The notes beneath the pieces are model-generated. The model saw nothing but the letters and a program-made list of their open reading frames with translations, did not search any database and was not told where the DNA came from. Shown here piece by piece: positions 1-6,725 of a stretch of DNA of 41,450 bases; the first letter of the stretch is position 1; each line of letters starts with the position of its first letter. The translations under genes were made by a program, and so were the position numbers. Source of the stretch: Bacillota bacterium (lineage in GTDB: Bacteria; Bacillota; Clostridia; Lachnospirales; Bianqueaceae); contig JAFVHC010000024.1 in the NCBI GenBank assembly GCA_017474705.1, positions 1-41,450 of the forward strand, read 5' to 3'.

Positions 1-614
1 CAGCACAGATCCGCGCCGAGGTCCATGGGGTGCTGTGATGGTGTGAGAAAACGCAGGTACGCCCCGTGGGCGTTATCGACCGCAAGCAATACGTTATGAC
101 GATGGCAGACTGCGGCCAGGCTCCGCACATCGACCATATGGCCCAGATAATCTGGGCTCGTGATGTAGACGACATCCGGCTCCTCACGGCAGATCGCCTC
201 TTCCAGCGCTTCCGGCAGTATCGTACAGGCCTGATAGGATTCTCCCGGCAGAGGATACAGCCAGGACACGTCCAGATCCAGCAGCGCTGCTGCGCTCAGA
301 AACACTTTATGCGCGTTGCGGCCCGCCAGCACCTTTTTGCCACGGCCCAGCGTCGCAAGATACAGCATCGCCCGGATCGCCAAAGAGGAACCTTCCGTCG
401 AATAGAACGTCGGACACCCAAACAAGAGCGAAGCATTGGCCTCGCTCTCGGCTATGATGCCGGAAGCCTCGTACAAGCTGTCCGCCCCGTCGACTTCCGT
501 GATGTCCAACGGCTCTGCACCGATCGGGCCACGGCCTTTATGGCCTGGCATATGCAGACGGATGGGAGATGAATCTGCGTATCGTTTCACAAAATCATAA
601 ATAGGAGTATTCAT
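1..614 (-). CDS. Orn/Lys/Arg decarboxylase-family PLP-dependent enzyme, N-terminal ~204 codons (3' end beyond window)
   Basis: Absent from the ORF track because no stop lies in the window. My minus-strand translation from the ATG at 614-612 gives MNTPIYDFVKRYADSSPIRLHMPGHKGRGPIGAEPLDITEVDGADSLYEASG... The HMPGHKG N-terminus is typical of YaaO/SpeA-like decarboxylases. The ATG overlaps the upstream gene's TAA (TAATG). Confidence 0.75.
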   Translation of the reverse strand, partial: MNTPIYDFVKRYADSSPIRLHMPGHKGRGPIGAEPLDITEVDGADSLYEASGIIAESEANASLLFGCPTFYSTEGSSLAIRAMLYLATLGRGKKVLAGRNAHKVFLSAAALLDLDVSWLYPLPGESYQACTILPEALEEAICREEPDVVYITSPDYLGHMVDVRSLAAVCHRHNVLLAVDNAHGAYLRFLTPSQHPMDLGADLC

Positions 615-1372
615 TATTCCGGCTTTCTCAGTGTATACAGCACATACGTGTCTTTGAACACGACCAGGTCGCCGTTCTCGCATACGGTCCTTCGCAAGCC
701 TTCAAAGAATGCGGTCCGACCTGGTTCGGCGATCGTTAAATGATCGGAATGTGTGCCGCAGTAGGCGACGTACTCGTCGGCCGTCAACCGCCGCTCTCCA
801 AAAAACTCGTGCTTCTCAAGATCCACATAGCCGTAGGCTGGTCCGTTCGTATAATCGAACCTTTGGCGATACGGGATCTCCGGCTTATAGTACTGATCGT
901 AGACCTGCTGGATCTTCTGATACAGCGCTTCATTGGATGACCTGTATTCGCCGCTCGTCAGCATCATGGCCAGCATCCCGCCGGGCTTGAGCAGTTCAAA
1001 GGTCTTGCTATAGGCGACCTCCTCCGGGATCCACTGGATCGTCGCCGCGGAGTAGATCATGTCGAACTTCTGATCACCAAAATCGTGCGTGATGAAATCA
1101 TCGTTGATGATGTGGAAATTCGGGCACGCGCCGTATTTCTCCTGCATTTTGGCCGCCAGATGCGGTCCCAGCTCGATCGCGAGATAATCGCAGCCCGTCG
1201 CCAAAACAGAATCTGTCGCCTGACCGGTGCCCGGTCCCAGCTCCAGCACTTCAGAATCCACACCGATGCCCGCCTCCCGGATCAGGTGATCGAACAGTTC
1301 CTGACTGTAGCGCGGCCGCCAACGGTCGAACCGCTCCGGGATCGTATCAAAAATCTTCCTCAGCTCCATCAT
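614..1372 (-). CDS. class I SAM-dependent methyltransferase
   Basis: ORF 614..1435, trimmed to MMELRK (ATG at 1372 or 1369), which is preceded by GGAGGAAG. Motif I is VLELGPGTGQAT. The start overlaps the scfB 3' end by about 23-26 nt. Confidence 0.8.
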   Translation of the reverse strand: MMELRKIFDTIPERFDRWRPRYSQELFDHLIREAGIGVDSEVLELGPGTGQATDSVLATGCDYLAIELGPHLAAKMQEKYGACPNFHIINDDFITHDFGDQKFDMIYSAATIQWIPEEVAYSKTFELLKPGGMLAMMLTSGEYRSSNEALYQKIQQVYDQYYKPEIPYRQRFDYTNGPAYGYVDLEKHEFFGERRLTADEYVAYCGTHSDHLTIAEPGRTAFFEGLRRTVCENGDLVVFKDTYVLYTLRKPE

Positions 1373-2723
1373 CTTCCTCCGAGACCGCCAGCATGATGGC
1401 GCACTCCATGCGCTTCTTGAACAATTCGCAGCCATACTGATACACGCCCTTCACGCTGCCTGTGGCATGATAAGCATTGGCCGCACATCCACCGGAACAA
1501 TACAAGCGTGCCCAGCAGTTCCTGCAGTCCGGATGTGCGTACACGTTGCAGGAGGCGAATTCTTCCTGCACCTTCGCGTTGTCCACGCCGTGCCAGATGT
1601 CGCCCAGTTTGAAGGCTTCTTCTCCGACGAACTGATGGCAGGGATAGAGATCGCCCCATGGGGTGACCGCCATATATTCCGTGCCGGAACCGCATCCGGA
1701 GATGCGCTTGTAAATACATGGCCCGCCGGCCAGGTCCAGCATATAATGATAGAATGTGAAAGGCCTGCCTTCTCTGCGGCGCCGGCGCATGAGTTCCGCC
1801 AGGTCTTCATATTGTTTCAGAACGATCGGCAGATCCTCCTGTGTCAAAGCGGAGGGATCCTCCGGCGCGCAGACCACCGGTTCCATGGACAGTTCCGTGA
1901 ACCCTAGGTCGAGCATCGTTTTGATATCTTCCAGGAAATCAGGATTCGCATGGGTGAAGGTGCCGCGCATATAATAATTCTTTCCTTCGCGGGCATTCAC
2001 CAGTTTCTGGAACTTCGGCACGATCCTCTCCCAGCTGCCCTTGCCCGCGTAATCTACGCGGAACCGGTCATGGACCTCCTTACGGCCGTCCAGGCTCAGC
2101 ACCACGTTGCTCATCTCACGGTTGCAGAAATCGATCACGTCATCATCGATCAGGACGCCGTTGGTGGTCAGCGTAAAGCGGAAATTCTTGCCCTTCTCCT
2201 GCTCTACGCTGCGCGCGTAGGCGACCAACTGTTTGACCACGTCGAAATTCATCAACGGTTCCCCGCCGAAGAAATCCACCTCCAGATTGCGTCGGGTGCC
2301 GGAATTTTCGATCAGGAAGTCGAGCGCCTGCTTGCCCACCTCAAAACTCATGATAGCCCTGTCCCCATGATATTTGCCCTGGGACGCGAAACAGTAGGAA
2401 CAGTTGAGGTTGCAGGTATGGGCGACATGCAGGCACAAAGCCTTGACCACACCGGATGTCCGCTGTTTGAGTTCGCCTGCCATGGGCTCGAAGGTATCCG
2501 GGGCGAAGAGCATGCCCGCGTCCTTGAGCTCCGTGATCTGGTCATAACACTCCTGGATCTCCTCCTCCGGGACGTCCGGGTACGCCGCGGCGACTTTCTG
2601 CACCGCATCCGGCGCTTCATAGACTGCGATGAGATCATAGGCGATATCATCGACCACATGGACAGAGCCGGAGCACACGTCCAGCACGATATTGTAACCA
2701 CCGAGTTTATATTGATGGATCAT
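1347..2723 (-). CDS. scfB: radical SAM/SPASM thioether-forming SCIFF peptide maturase
   Basis: 458 aa. It has a CNLNCSYCFA CxxxCxxC radical-SAM motif and a Cys-rich C-terminal SPASM region (CGSGTEY...CHQF...CRNCWARLYCSGGCAANA). The N-terminus MIHQYKLGGYNIVLDVCSGSVHVVDD is typical of CteB-like enzymes. It sits in the same operon as a canonical SCIFF peptide. RBS is AAGGAGAA. Confidence 0.9.
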   Translation of the reverse strand: MIHQYKLGGYNIVLDVCSGSVHVVDDIAYDLIAVYEAPDAVQKVAAAYPDVPEEEIQECYDQITELKDAGMLFAPDTFEPMAGELKQRTSGVVKALCLHVAHTCNLNCSYCFASQGKYHGDRAIMSFEVGKQALDFLIENSGTRRNLEVDFFGGEPLMNFDVVKQLVAYARSVEQEKGKNFRFTLTTNGVLIDDDVIDFCNREMSNVVLSLDGRKEVHDRFRVDYAGKGSWERIVPKFQKLVNAREGKNYYMRGTFTHANPDFLEDIKTMLDLGFTELSMEPVVCAPEDPSALTQEDLPIVLKQYEDLAELMRRRRREGRPFTFYHYMLDLAGGPCIYKRISGCGSGTEYMAVTPWGDLYPCHQFVGEEAFKLGDIWHGVDNAKVQEEFASCNVYAHPDCRNCWARLYCSGGCAANAYHATGSVKGVYQYGCELFKKRMECAIMLAVSEEDDGAEEDF

Positions 2724-2746
2724 TGGTTTTCTCCTTACAGGATATA

Positions 2747-3958
2747 TTATGCTTGATCATTCCGGAAGAGCTTCCGGCTGGTCGCGATGAACATCAGGAT
2801 CATGCCAACACCGGTGACAGCCGCGCCGAACGCGAGGATCGTCTGCATGGGCAGGTGCTCCAGCATCCATCCACCGCCGATATTGGCCGCGACTCCGCAG
2901 ATCCCCGTGACGCCCACCGCCATGATGCTCTGTGCCTTGACCGAATCCCTGCGGCCTACGATGGAATTGATATAATAGACCGCGGCGACCATGTACAGAC
3001 CGGAGAAGAAGAACTGGATCAATTGGGATCCGATCAGCCATGTGGTATTGGGGATGAACATCATGGCCGTGAATTTAAGGAATCCGCCGATGGCACTGAC
3101 ACGCAGCATGGTCTCCGCCGAAAACTTCTTCATGATATACATGCCCAGGGCCACGGCCGGCATCTCCGCGAAGGCCATCACCGACAGCACAGTGCCCATT
3201 TCGGCCTCCCCGCCTCCATAATGCCGCACGAAAAAGATCATGTACGTGCTGGTCAGCATCTGCATGAAGAACACCAGCATGACGCTCAGAAGGAACAGGT
3301 CGTAGCGCGTGTATCTGCGGAAAAACTGCAGCAGATTGCTGGGTGCTTCCTCGTCCGCCACCGTCTGCCCCCGGGAGAGGACGACGTTGTCTGACTCCGG
3401 CTTCTTCATGAAGATGACCACGGCCATCATGAAGATCTGGATCCCGCAGAAGATCGGCAGCAGGATCTCCGTGCCGAAGGATTCAGTGATGCGGCCCATC
3501 ACGAAGCCGGCCAGCGCATAGCCCAGAGAGCCGATGCTGCGGGCCACGCCGAAGTTGATGTCCCGCCCTGCGGCGTTATACTGCAGGCAGAATGATACGG
3601 TCAGCGGGGAAAGGGTATTCATCAGGCTGAGTGCCGTGAACATGCAGATGAAAGACACCGCATAGGACTTGGGGATCAGCCACATGATTAAAGCGACCGC
3701 TGCGCCGCACAAAAGCAGTGCCAGGATGATCTGACGGACAGAGATCCGCTCGGACCGGTCCGCCAGGTCGGACAGCGTCGTTTGCAGGACGATGGTCAGC
3801 ACGGCACCTGTCGTTGTCACGTAACCGATCTCGGACGCGGTGAATCCGCGGCCGGACAAAAGGACCGCCGCGAAGGACGCGATGATCAGATAATCGATCC
3901 AATAGCTGAACTGAAGTGCAGAATACTCCACGTTCAGTCTGCGATCTGTTGTATCCAT
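2747..3958 (-). CDS. MFS transporter, 12-TM type
   Basis: ORF 2747..4138, trimmed to MDTTDRRLNVEYS (ATG at 3958). The upstream 60 codons of the track ORF run antisense-frame through the SCIFF gene and its terminator. The protein is hydrophobic and multi-helix throughout, with a central hydrophilic loop (KKPESDNVVLSRGQTVADEEAPSN). Confidence 0.8.
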   Translation of the reverse strand: MDTTDRRLNVEYSALQFSYWIDYLIIASFAAVLLSGRGFTASEIGYVTTTGAVLTIVLQTTLSDLADRSERISVRQIILALLLCGAAVALIMWLIPKSYAVSFICMFTALSLMNTLSPLTVSFCLQYNAAGRDINFGVARSIGSLGYALAGFVMGRITESFGTEILLPIFCGIQIFMMAVVIFMKKPESDNVVLSRGQTVADEEAPSNLLQFFRRYTRYDLFLLSVMLVFFMQMLTSTYMIFFVRHYGGGEAEMGTVLSVMAFAEMPAVALGMYIMKKFSAETMLRVSAIGGFLKFTAMMFIPNTTWLIGSQLIQFFFSGLYMVAAVYYINSIVGRRDSVKAQSIMAVGVTGICGVAANIGGGWMLEHLPMQTILAFGAAVTGVGMILMFIATSRKLFRNDQA

Positions 3959-3985
3959 ACTACTACCTTTACACTTCTTAATACA

Positions 3986-4012
3986 GGAAAAATGCCGCCT
4001 GGTACAGGCGGC
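3986..4012 (-). terminator. intrinsic terminator/attenuator between scfA and the MFS gene
   Basis: On the minus strand: GCCGCCUG-UAC-CAGGCGGC (8-bp GC-rich stem, plus coordinates 3994-4012), followed by AUUUUUCC. It lies 20 nt after the scfA stop. Confidence 0.65.
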
Positions 4013-4031
4013 TCTTTTCATTGGGTTGACA

Positions 4032-4175
4032 TTATTTCTTGTTTTCGCACTTCTGATTGGCAATGCCGCAGCTGGTCTTGCATGCGGACTGGCAGGAAGT
4101 CTGGCACTCGCCGCAGCCGCCTTTTTTGGCGCTCTCACACAGGTTGCGCGTAGTGATAGTCTTGATATGCTTCAT
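4032..4175 (-). CDS. scfA: SCIFF (six-cysteines-in-forty-five) ranthipeptide precursor, 47 aa
   Basis: Below the ORF-track size cutoff. My translation is MKHIKTITTRNLCESAKKGGCGECQTSCQSACKTSCGIANQKCENKK. The MKHIKT leader and the GGCGECQTSCQSACKTSC core match the family signature. RBS is GGGAGGA, 5 nt upstream of the ATG. Confidence 0.92.
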   Translation of the reverse strand: MKHIKTITTRNLCESAKKGGCGECQTSCQSACKTSCGIANQKCENKK

Positions 4176-4208
4176 GGTGGTCCTCCCTATTTTTCAAATC
4201 GTAAACTG

Positions 4209-4237
4209 ATTATAGCATGGAGGATGCCTCCTGTCAA
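4209..4237 (-). promoter_or_regulatory. perfect consensus SigA promoter for the scfA operon
   Basis: Minus strand: TTGACA (4237-4232), a 17-nt spacer, then TATAAT (4214-4209). The spacer contains the palindrome GGAGG-CAT-CCTCC (4219-4231). Confidence 0.75.
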
Positions 4238-4300: not shown

Positions 4301-5646
4301 TTGGCTTCGATCAACAATTTTACCGAAGGAAAGATCGCTGGTCCTCTGGTCCGCTTTACGATCCCTTTACTGCTGGCTTTCTGCCTGCAGTCCTTATACG
4401 GCGCCGTGGACCTGATGGTCGTCGGCCAGTTCGGTGTGCCAGCTGATGTTTCAGCGGTCTCCACCGGCAGCCAGATGATGCAGATGGTCCTGGTCGTGGT
4501 GGCCGGACTGTCCATGGGTGCGACCATCCTGCTGGGGCAGGCAGTCGGTGCAGGGAGATCCAAAGAATCCGGCAGTCTGATCGGCACCAGCATCACCTTC
4601 TTCATCGGTCTGGCACTGATCCTCACCGCACTCATGCTGCTGGTCACCGTTCCTTTCACCCGGCTCATGCAGGCTCCGAAAGAAGCTTTTGATAAGACCG
4701 TCACATACGTAAGGATCTGTTCCGTGGGCACGTTGTTCATCACTGCCTATAACGTGATCGGCTCCATCTTCCGCGGCATCGGAGATTCCCGCACGCCGCT
4801 TTTTACCGTTGCAGTTGCTACAGTGGTCAACATTATCGGCGATCTGGTCCTGGTCGCGGTCTTCCATATGGCGGCCGCCGGTGCGGCCATAGCGACCGTT
4901 GCCGCCCAGGGTGTCAGTGTCGTTTTGAGTCTGCTGCTGGTCCGCAGACAAGGCCTGCCTTTCTCCTTTGACAAGACCGATGTCCGGCTGGACAAGCGCC
5001 ATGCCCTTGACATCGTGAAACTGGGCATGCCCATCGCCCTGCAGGACGGATTGGTCTCCATCTCGTTCCTGGTCATCGCGGCCATCGTCAACAGCCTGGG
5101 CGTCATGGTCTCCGCCGGCGTCGGCGTGGCCGAGCGCGTCTGCGGGTTCATCATGCTCGTGCCCTCAGCCTTTTCCCAGGCACTTTCCACCTTTGTCGCC
5201 CAAAATACCGGTGCGAACAAACCGCAGCGGGCGATGCGCGGCACGATCATCGCCATGGCATCTCCTTCGCCATCGATGCTGTGATTGCTTACTTCAGTTT
5301 CTTCCATGGGGACCTGCTGGCCTCCATCTTCACTTCGGACAAGCAGCTGATCGCCTATGCCTGGGAATACCTGAAGGCCTACGCGATCGATACCCTGCTG
5401 GTCTCCTTCATGTTCTGCTTCATAGGTTACTTTACCGGTGTCGGACGTACGACCTTCTGCATGATCCAGGGGCTGATCTGCGCGTTCCTGGTGCGTGTTC
5501 CGGTCTCCTGGGTGATGAGCCGGCGCGTGCCGGTCAGCCTCTTCCACATCGGTCTTGCGACACCCAGTTCTTCCCTGGCCGGGATCCTGCTGTGTGTTGG
5601 ATTCCTGCTGTTCATACGAAACAAAGAGCAAAATAAGGGGGCGTGA
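4301..5646 (+). pseudogene. MATE family efflux transporter, interrupted by a 1-nt frameshift near 5257
   Basis: Track ORFs 4217..5284 and 5281..5646 are the two halves of one ~449-aa MATE protein. The likely start is TTG 4301, 8 nt after AAGGAGG. Inserting one G after ATG(5255-5257) restores ...QNTGANKPQRAMRGTIIAM-GISFAIDAVIAYFSFFHGDLLASIF... Confidence 0.8.
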
Positions 5647-5680
5647 AACAAGGGTGAATCTTTTTTCACAGCCCCTTTAC
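5637..5680 (+). terminator. weak terminator-like hairpin at the MATE 3' end
   Basis: GGGGC-GUGAAA ... UUUCAC-A-GCCCC, followed by only UUU. It overlaps the stop codon. Confidence 0.35.
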
Positions 5681-5695
5681 TAGAGAATTGGTCGT

Positions 5696-5915
5696 TTGGA
5701 GAGAAATCAGAAAAAAAGAAAATCGTCTCCAAAGAATTCCCATTTTTTCTGGAGACGATCATAAGGAGAGTCAATTGCTCTCCAATTTCAAAAGAATTTT
5801 ATATGGAGATGATTTGAAGATTTTCAATAAACTCTCCGGATTTTTGGAGAGGATTCTCTTTTTGCGGAAATCGTCTCCCGGAGACAAAATCAAGATCATC
5901 GGTTTCTTCTCCAAA
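5696..5915. repeat. AT-rich non-coding island dense in GGAGA / TCTCC inverted motifs with degenerate ~53-bp periodicity
   Basis: GGAGA occurs at about 5698, 5751, 5765, 5805, 5846 and 5880. TCTCC occurs at about 5726, 5779, 5833, 5873 and 5908. Stems include ATCGTCTCC/GGAGACGAT (5723-5759), GGAGAG/CTCTCC (5765-5783) and CTCTCC/GGAGAG (5832-5851). Confidence 0.6.
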
Positions 5916-5952
5916 AACGAAACTGAAAATGGTGAGAATCAGATACAACAAA

Positions 5953-5999
5953 TGAAAAAAGAGGCCGTGAAATAACGACAATCGTTACTTCATGGCCTC
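5953..5999 (-). terminator. intrinsic terminator of the SGNH hydrolase gene
   Basis: Minus strand: GAGGCCAUGAAGUAACGA-UUG-UCGUUAUUUCACGGCCUC, an ~18-bp stem with one wobble and one mismatch, followed by UUUUUUCAUUU. Confidence 0.8.
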
Positions 6000-6005
6000 C
6001 CAATT

Positions 6006-6725
6006 TTACTGCAGAAAGGGCAGCAATGCTTCCAGCACCGGTGCGTAGCCATCACCGTACATGTGCATGCCTTCGATGGTATATTCGGCCTTCATCTGGC
6101 CTTTTTCATCCTTGATGCCCGCGTTGCAGTCGATGAAGGTGGCGCCGATCTCCTCGGCTAGCTTTGCGACTGCCGCGTTGGCTGCGTTGACACGTGCATT
6201 GGTCCTCACCTTGAGGGCTTCTTTCATGAAGGGAATGTTCTCCGCCACTTCCGGGTTGACCGGATAATAGGCCATCATGAAGATCTTCGCCTCCGGCAGT
6301 CGCTCCTTGATCCTGTCAAGGATCTCGCGATAGCGCGCGATCAGACCCTCTTCCGTATAGTCCGGTGCGTTCAGATCGTTCGTGCCGATGTTGATGAAGA
6401 TCTTGTCCGGCTGCAGGTCAAACACACAAGCGTCCAGAGTCTCCAACAGTTCCTGCGTGGTGTAGCCGCCGATACCGCGGTTGTAGATGGTGTAGGGCAG
6501 CTGCTTGTCCAACAGCAGCTCGTAGATCGGAAACTGTTCCATCAGGCTGCTGCCGACGAACAGGATCTGATGCGGACGCACCAACTTGTTCAGGTGTTGA
6601 TACCTTACGACTTTATCCTTCTTGTCTGCCCGCATCCGCTCCATGAACTGTTCACGGATCGCAGCTTCTATCGCCTTTTGCTGCTCCGGTGTCAACTGCT
6701 GCATGATGTCACTGATATCGCTCAT
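6006..6725 (-). CDS. SGNH/GDSL-family hydrolase (esterase/lipase-like)
   Basis: 239 aa. Blocks seen: FVGSSLMEQFP (block I), NRGIGGYTT (block II), INIGTNDL (block III). RBS is GAAGGAGA. Confidence 0.75.
   Translation of the reverse strand: MSDISDIMQQLTPEQQKAIEAAIREQFMERMRADKKDKVVRYQHLNKLVRPHQILFVGSSLMEQFPIYELLLDKQLPYTIYNRGIGGYTTQELLETLDACVFDLQPDKIFINIGTNDLNAPDYTEEGLIARYREILDRIKERLPEAKIFMMAYYPVNPEVAENIPFMKEALKVRTNARVNAANAAVAKLAEEIGATFIDCNAGIKDEKGQMKAEYTIEGMHMYGDGYAPVLEALLPFLQ

Follow-up and report, generated by a model that had tools for sequence, protein, structure and literature searches.

SCIFF ranthipeptides are the products of ScfA-ScfB systems, which are distributed throughout the Clostridia and consist of a precursor peptide with a six-Cys core and a radical S-adenosylmethionine (SAM)/SPASM maturase. 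The closest described examples are CteA/CteB of Acetivibrio thermocellus and Tte1186a/Tte1186, and thioether chemistry has been established for the family with CteB and Tte1186 (PMC8326336). The conserved core described in the literature comprises the precursor gene and a gene encoding an RRE/radical SAM protein only (PMC13673991), and a published survey counted 234 maturases encoded within 500 bp of scfA (PMC5300114). Passages of PMC13673991 and PMC8326336 that cite Chen et al. (2020) attribute a quorum-sensing role in solventogenic clostridia to SCIFF ranthipeptides; the view of an earlier note on the DNA studied here, that the role of these peptides is unknown, is to that extent partly outdated. 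In this study, we analyzed a SCIFF locus at one end of a 41,450-nt stretch (hereafter the window; contig JAFVHC010000024.1 of assembly GCA_017474705.1) from a Bacillota bacterium of the family Bianqueaceae. The locus has the same six-Cys precursor and the same type of maturase as the CteA/CteB-type systems, but the operon carries two extra genes, and one of these, encoding a major facilitator superfamily (MFS) transporter, parts the precursor gene from the maturase gene. The scfA stop codon (4032) and the scfB start codon (2723) lie 1,308 nt apart on the same strand and behind the same promoter, well outside the 500-bp adjacency used in the published survey. The locus is a lineage-specific, enlarged variant of the known SCIFF operon, and the MFS gene and a methyltransferase gene are probably two ordinary genes that entered a conserved operon with a strong promoter and an attenuator in one narrow herbivore-gut clade and that have no part in SCIFF maturation.

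The minus strand carries all five genes in the order scfA, MFS gene, scfB, methyltransferase gene, and pyridoxal phosphate (PLP) enzyme gene. The positions given for them in the earlier note were confirmed by hidden Markov model (HMM) matches and by other assemblies (Table 1). ScfA belongs to the ~45-residue class of peptides with a six-Cys core, and its scores against TIGR03973 (80.2 bits, cutoff 50) and PF13165 (83.4 bits, cutoff 27) lie above the curated cutoffs for SCIFF precursors. ScfB matched TIGR03974 over its full length with 767.2 bits (cutoff 425), and its score against the "not_ScfB" orphan model NF040492 (558 bits) was under the cutoff of that model (855). The radical SAM motif CxxxCxxC (CNLNCSYC) and the C-terminal SPASM cysteines (CRNCWARLYCSGGC) can be read directly from the translation; among the domain models, PF04055 scored 56 bits, and PF13186 alone was marginal (20.4 versus a cutoff of 21.5). 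By orthology with CteB and Tte1186, ScfB is predicted to install thioether cross-links in ScfA. The PLP enzyme gene is incomplete here, with the first 204 of ~433 codons inside the window (614-<1).

The junctions between the genes are tight. The MFS/scfB spacer is 23 nt long and contains AGGAG. Homologues of the methyltransferase begin with MEFRKIF, and the window reads MELRKIF from the ATG at 1369, which has GGAGG 6 nt upstream; because the homologues start in this way, 1369 is a marginally better start than 1372. The overlap between scfB and the methyltransferase gene is 23 nt from the former start and 26 nt from the latter, in agreement with the ~25 nt in the earlier note, and the last ~10 codons of scfB thus extend into the 5' end of the methyltransferase gene. 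The methyltransferase stop codon overlaps the ATG of the PLP enzyme gene in a TAATG at 616-612, again as noted before. The same arrangement recurs in other assemblies (loci L099, L082, L083, L001/L084, and L081), and the source sequence is present in bovine, sheep, and other gut metagenomes. We rejected an assembly chimera as an explanation of the arrangement, since the gene order is common to independent assemblies.

We then compared the locus with its relatives. The survey set consisted of the 80 species-genome loci with the closest ScfB (77-93% identity) out of at least 594 relatives, and the five window proteins were located in these loci by tblastn. The standard unit consists of a promoter, scfA, a terminator hairpin, scfB, and a gene encoding a YaaO-like PLP enzyme. 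Of the 78 assessable loci, 75 have the last gene directly 3' of scfB; the gap has a median of -1 nt and falls between -20 and +5 nt in 68 of the 75. When the flanking open reading frames (ORFs) were clustered, the PLP enzyme formed one cluster of 72 members, and the largest family in the upstream or downstream flanks reached 4-5 loci; the flanks beyond the scfA-scfB-PLP block are not conserved. The suggestion that the decarboxylase might be an unrelated housekeeping gene is hence reversed, as this gene is the one neighbor of scfB that is conserved and translationally coupled. In contrast, an MFS gene between scfA and scfB together with a methyltransferase gene after scfB was found in only one of the 80 loci (L001, ScfB 93% identical). 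The window therefore resembles the three-gene scfA-scfB-PLP operon of Oscillospirales-type gut Clostridia in its promoter, hairpin after scfA, peptide core, and last gene, which starts in a start-stop overlap, but the scfB/methyltransferase and methyltransferase/PLP overlaps replace the direct scfB/PLP overlap. The earlier note had itself named a narrowly confined association of the MFS and methyltransferase genes as grounds for giving up its proposal of a role in the SCIFF pathway, and the limitation to one narrow clade answers to this in spirit.

A few surveyed loci depart from the standard unit in other ways. Three of them (L060, L063, and L067) have scfA and scfB, and the 1.2-6 kb of sequence downstream contained no PLP enzyme gene; such loci offer possible natural controls for the contribution of this enzyme. 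In three others (L056 and L064, with 6 kb of upstream sequence each, and L004, with 1.4 kb), scfB and the PLP enzyme gene are present, and neither tblastn nor a Cys-motif scan found scfA in that sequence. In these lineages, the precursor gene may have been relocated or lost.

We examined the full-length PLP enzyme in the orthologue of L082 (433 aa). It has the PF01276 and PF03711 domains and matches PDB 2X3L, a member of the Orn/Lys/Arg decarboxylase family from Staphylococcus aureus, over residues 2-430 (E 8.5e-30). Because this match runs from end to end, we placed the enzyme among the short "ancestral" homologues of the AAT-fold decarboxylases, which have PF01276, a C-terminal domain, and ~430-490 aa and lack the N-terminal wing. 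It shares its fold family and a similar length (~433-460 aa) with 2X3L and with YaaO of Bacillus subtilis, which has no effect on polyamine levels and influences the 5-aminopentanol modification of EF-P (PMC8503589). YaaO orthologues are recognized by their position just upstream of tmk (PMC8503589), whereas the PLP enzyme gene here follows scfB. Downstream of the PLP enzyme gene, each gene family is confined to at most 4 of 72 loci, in a comparison that did not include an HMM search for tmk. As there is no conserved downstream gene, we call the enzyme YaaO-like rather than a YaaO orthologue. Our literature search found no paper that links SCIFF to this PLP enzyme or describes a three-gene scfA-scfB-PLP operon.

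Table 1. Features of the enlarged SCIFF locus (coordinates in the window).
Feature	Coordinates	Strand	Remarks
Sigma-70-type promoter TTGACA-17-TATAAT, extended -10 TG	4209..4237	-	~33 nt upstream of scfA ATG; 12/12 match
scfA, SCIFF ranthipeptide precursor, 47 aa (MKHIKTITTRNLCESAKKGGCGECQTSCQSACKTSCGIANQKCENKK)	4032..4175	-	TIGR03973, PF13165
Intrinsic-terminator-like hairpin, GCCGCCUG-UAC-CAGGCGGC then AUUUUU	3988..4012 (hairpin 4012-3994)	-	Between scfA and MFS gene
MFS transporter, 403 aa	2747..3958	-	PF07690, PF12832; MFS_1_like / LacY-HcaT-like branch; clade-specific insertion
scfB, radical SAM/SPASM thioether-forming SCIFF maturase (predicted), 458 aa	1347..2723	-	TIGR03974
Class I SAM methyltransferase, Tam/HvrF-like small-molecule type	614..1372 (start 1369 or 1372)	-	Methyltransf_25/11/12; clade-specific insertion
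YaaO-like short AAT-fold Orn/Lys/Arg-decarboxylase-family PLP enzyme, 5' part, 204 codons	1..614	-	PF01276, 63 bits

The loci that bear the MFS gene form a single clade in a ScfB tree (quick IQ-TREE search with SH-aLRT support; support 97). One member, L086, has the MFS gene and lacks the methyltransferase gene, and its scfB and PLP enzyme gene meet in an ATGA overlap. The placement of L086 inside the clade is not reliable (support 88), and in this tree both a loss of the methyltransferase gene and its never having been gained would fit. Comparison of the junctions with those of L086 revealed that the methyltransferase gene was inserted as a clean cassette of ~770 nt comprising a Shine-Dalgarno sequence and the ORF, which replaces the last few scfB codons and ends exactly at the ATG of the PLP enzyme gene. 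The synonymous divergence (dS) between lineages with the arrangement is ~0.9-1.2, and dN/dS is 0.06-0.17 for the MFS gene and 0.06-0.13 for the methyltransferase gene; both inserts are resident genes under purifying selection. Their GC and GC3 match those of the neighboring genes, and on this account, together with the within-clade dS of ~1, a recent horizontal transfer of the inserts was rejected. The comparison of the window with L082 gave a mosaic, with a dS of 0.12 for the methyltransferase gene, 0.34 for the PLP enzyme gene, and 0.88-0.89 for the MFS gene and scfB, which suggests a recent inter-lineage recombination that replaced part of the operon.

The slot behind the scfA attenuator has received other genes as well. 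L081 carries a gene for a 519-aa carboxylesterase (PF00135; 3428-4987) between scfA and the MFS gene. In L023, which belongs to an unrelated lineage, an ORF for a 315-aa membrane-anchored protein (5042-5989) lies between scfA and scfB, and its product looks like an alpha/beta-hydrolase, judging from a nucleophile-elbow motif read by eye. With the MFS, carboxylesterase, and alpha/beta-hydrolase-like ORFs, the slot looks like a recurrent insertion hot spot. Non-coding spacers of ~430-450 nt occupy the same slot in L031 and L070.

We next turned to the control of the operon. The perfect promoter reported upstream of scfA was confirmed as the sole 12/12 match within 6 kb (4237-4209), and a scan of the minus strand from 4209 to 1 found no further promoter-like site. 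Of 77 related loci, 47 have a promoter matching at 11 or more of the 12 positions ~31-34 nt upstream of scfA, compared with 9 of 500 random windows, so the match exceeds chance. The single coupled unit behind one promoter, in which the MFS gene separates scfA from scfB, was supported as a structure, but its earlier description had overlooked a strong hairpin at 4012-3994. This hairpin has 8 bp, of which 7 are GC, and folding gave a dG of -22.4 kcal/mol with a z of -3.15; the remaining terminator-like matches on the minus strand are weak 5-bp stems within coding sequence. No Rfam family reached its gathering threshold over the whole window, so the hairpin does not correspond to a known riboswitch or leader.

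An equivalent hairpin with a T-run is present in 71 of 78 related loci and starts at a median of 12 nt past the scfA stop codon. In most of these loci, across many genera, the stem is ATGCCGCC/GGCGGCAT followed by TTTTT, with a variable loop, and the stems covary fully in a few lineages (e.g., L009, L011, L032, L058, and L076). Judged from this comparison, the conservation of the stem sequence is uncommonly strong for an intrinsic terminator. In canonical relatives, scfA and scfB are 44-276 nt apart, and the distance from the hairpin to scfB is 15-40 nt in many loci, which leaves no room for a promoter; we infer that scfB must be transcribed by read-through. The hairpin after scfA is thus a probable attenuator that sets an excess of the precursor, and the downstream genes would depend on read-through.

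Co-transcription, a check proposed in the earlier note, was addressed with Logan contigs from four metatranscriptome runs, which are unstranded, have a depth of 2-5, and carry 0-4 mismatches. One contig (3887-4037, 151 nt, 1 mismatch) runs from the scfA stop codon across the hairpin into the MFS gene, and another (2550-2778) bridges the MFS gene and scfB. The scfB/methyltransferase junction is bridged by contigs 1045-1421 and 1249-1586, and the methyltransferase/PLP enzyme gene junction by contigs 539-702 and 519-765. All four junctions are thus covered, and the data are consistent with co-transcription but fall short of proof because carry-over of DNA is possible. We rejected depth as a measure of attenuation, since the high depth over scfA derives from short k-mers shared with other organisms and the ratio of scfA to the downstream genes is unreadable here.

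We also traced the relatives of the two inserted genes. The MFS protein, whose length agrees with that of its homologues, weakly matched the sugar-efflux, 3-phenylpropionate, and nucleoside symporter-like NCBIfam models, far below their cutoffs, and a PDB sequence search with it gave no match; it is predicted to be a solute-type transporter. Relatives are few (38 in 5.8 billion proteins). Those with at least 77% identity all occupy the same SCIFF position (L081, L082, L083, L084, which is the L001 contig, L086, and L099 with 97%), and when metagenomes were scanned with the MFS sequence, the sole match was L099, a locus of the same species with the same arrangement. The relative in L085 (64% identity) has a MATE gene next to it instead of scfB. 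Relatives with 51-60% identity adjoin genes for a GH127 arabinofuranosidase, a GNAT protein, an ABC ATPase with ILVD, a sugar ABC system, or an alpha-amylase, and in three of the six cases at 51-64% identity the neighbors are sugar-uptake or polysaccharide-degrading genes. The methyltransferase belongs to a far larger family (1,637 matches), and most of the 120 relatives listed are 66-71% identical. In the three contexts examined, the relatives adjoin GGDEF/EAL with MIP, PNPOx with a Na/H exchanger, and heparinase with URO-D genes, none of them related to SCIFF. Neither scfA nor scfB nor the PLP enzyme gene was found in 15 outside loci of MFS and methyltransferase relatives.

The methyltransferase was modeled with AF2 (pLDDT 87), and the model matched HvrF best (9E72, TM 0.80), followed by the trans-aconitate methyltransferases (Tam), TTHA0223, and GtmA/TmtA. 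Like HvrF and Tam, the model has a Rossmann core and a C-terminal cap (TM 0.65-0.75 for Tam, TTHA0223, and GtmA), but sequence identity to these proteins is 13-20%, whereas the family in the window is conserved at 66-71% across Clostridia in varied contexts. The RiPP C-terminal methyltransferase LahSB (6UAK) gave a TM of 0.60, below the small-molecule enzymes. In this predicted structure, the methyltransferase is closest in fold to small-molecule carboxylate and thiol methyltransferases. The peptide itself offers no hint of a new step. The ScfA core, GGCGECQTSCQSACKTSCGIANQxCE, is common to nearly all loci with or without the MFS and methyltransferase genes, and the only deviations of ScfA in the MFS clade are E8T in the leader and differences in the basic tail. 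Nothing in this comparison suggests new tailoring chemistry.

These observations can be accommodated in the following scheme. The ancestral unit in Oscillospirales-type gut Clostridia would have consisted of the near-consensus promoter, scfA, the attenuating terminator, scfB, and the translationally coupled YaaO-like PLP enzyme gene. In one narrow clade, a solute-type MFS gene would have been inserted just downstream of the attenuator, and a methyltransferase gene with its own Shine-Dalgarno sequence between the end of scfB and the ATG of the PLP enzyme gene, with the coupling restored through TAATG. The majority of transcripts would stop at the hairpin and yield abundant scfA mRNA, and read-through transcripts would carry the MFS, scfB, methyltransferase, and PLP enzyme genes, with coupled translation at the overlapping junctions. 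ScfB would cross-link ScfA as in other SCIFF systems, and the MFS and the methyltransferase would do their own, probably small-molecule, jobs and use the operon for expression only.

Several alternatives must be weighed against this scheme. The earlier note proposed the MFS as a candidate exporter or immunity component and the methyltransferase as a candidate tailoring enzyme. If the former were dedicated to the mature SCIFF peptide and the latter modified that peptide, the clade would make a modified, exported ranthipeptide. The two genes are indeed co-directional, tightly coupled, and devoid of promoters of their own, they are under purifying selection within the clade, LahSB is among the structural matches of the methyltransferase, and the quorum-sensing role, as reported in the cited passages, implies that SCIFF peptides exit the cell. 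However, both genes are absent in 79 of the 80 closest species, and both families are widespread without SCIFF. For the MFS, there is neither the co-occurrence across producers nor the family enrichment expected of a RiPP exporter or immunity protein, as the relatives with up to 64% identity stand in non-SCIFF contexts; the models that it resembles are not those of peptide exporters. The methyltransferase shows no conserved linkage to the RiPP cluster and is dispensable inside the clade, as L086 indicates, and its fold is nearest to enzymes acting on small molecules. Moreover, an esterase and a hydrolase-like ORF have entered the same site elsewhere (L081 and L023), and the ScfA core is invariant, with no clade-specific change. 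By sequence comparison, export or tailoring roles have no comparative support, and we regard them as very improbable. A somewhat less improbable, but still unlikely, possibility is that the inserts were recruited to the PLP enzyme, forming a small-molecule module co-regulated with SCIFF in which an amino acid-derived product is methylated and transported. This would suit the small-molecule fold of the methyltransferase, its position exactly at the scfB/PLP junction with a re-created TAATG, and the solute-type MFS; in addition, the methyltransferase and PLP enzyme genes seem to move together because they share a low dS in the comparison of the window with L082. Against it, in none of the three contexts examined do the 66-71% identical relatives of the methyltransferase adjoin a gene for this PLP enzyme, L086 has the MFS gene without the methyltransferase gene, and B. 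subtilis YaaO acts on the EF-P modification and not on polyamine levels (PMC8503589).

The locus might also comprise two transcription units, with the hairpin terminating transcription fully and the MFS-scfB-methyltransferase-PLP genes read from an unrecognized internal promoter. The hairpin is strong, with its GC-rich stem followed by AUUUUU, and consensus scans are blind to promoters of alternative sigma factors. On the other hand, the MFS ATG lies only 36 nt past the hairpin, the scfA-scfB spacing falls as low as 44 nt in canonical relatives, the minus strand showed no promoter-like site between 4209 and 1, and one RNA contig crosses the hairpin with a single mismatch; such an arrangement is scarcely to be expected. 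The insertion of two ordinary genes remains our preferred explanation, and some points weigh against it. The inserts have been retained in the operon at a dS of ~1, with overlapping or nearly overlapping junctions and without promoters of their own, which is a pattern also expected of true recruitment. At least 594 ScfB loci exist, and the survey is limited to the 80 closest rather than extending to Clostridia at large. The RNA evidence consists of the low-depth, unstranded contigs described above, for which DNA carry-over is possible, and a repeat at 99% likeness traced the high coverage of scfA to unitigs of 30-50 nt that many Clostridia share. We nevertheless think it quite unlikely that the operon truly recruited new functions, such that the methyltransferase has as its substrate either the peptide after modification by ScfB or the compound made by the PLP enzyme, with that product being moved by the MFS. 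If it did, the clade would be a natural "gain-of-step" variant that reveals what the three-gene scfA-scfB-PLP system makes.

The region upstream of the operon holds a MATE efflux gene (4301-5646, plus strand) that is divergent from scfA. Its true start is ~4301, not 4217, and a deletion of 1 nt near 5259, as compared with L082 (GGGATC versus GC-ATC), splits it. The gene is intact in L099 (same species), L082, and L086 and is split in L083 too; the split reflects either a pseudogene specific to the strain or an error of assembly. An AT-rich intergenic stretch (5600-6000, GC 0.38) separates the MATE gene from a GDSL-lipase-like gene (6006-6725, minus strand), and a bidirectional hairpin at 5832-5851 between the two is probably a shared terminator.

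Since the comparative evidence fails to back export or tailoring, the MFS and methyltransferase genes should not be prioritized as genes of the SCIFF pathway. A better lead to SCIFF function is the YaaO-like PLP enzyme, since in this order of gut Clostridia the operon conserves its gene as a translationally coupled third member, and that gene stays under the scfA promoter even with the methyltransferase gene inserted ahead of it. The conserved hairpin after scfA, as a probable attenuator, must be reckoned with in any expression experiment. Because genes can be inserted behind the attenuator, rules based on adjacency, for example one that expects the maturase gene no more than 500 bp from scfA, can break down. 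More generally, the locus illustrates, on a small scale but clearly, how genes accrete into an operon that is strongly expressed.

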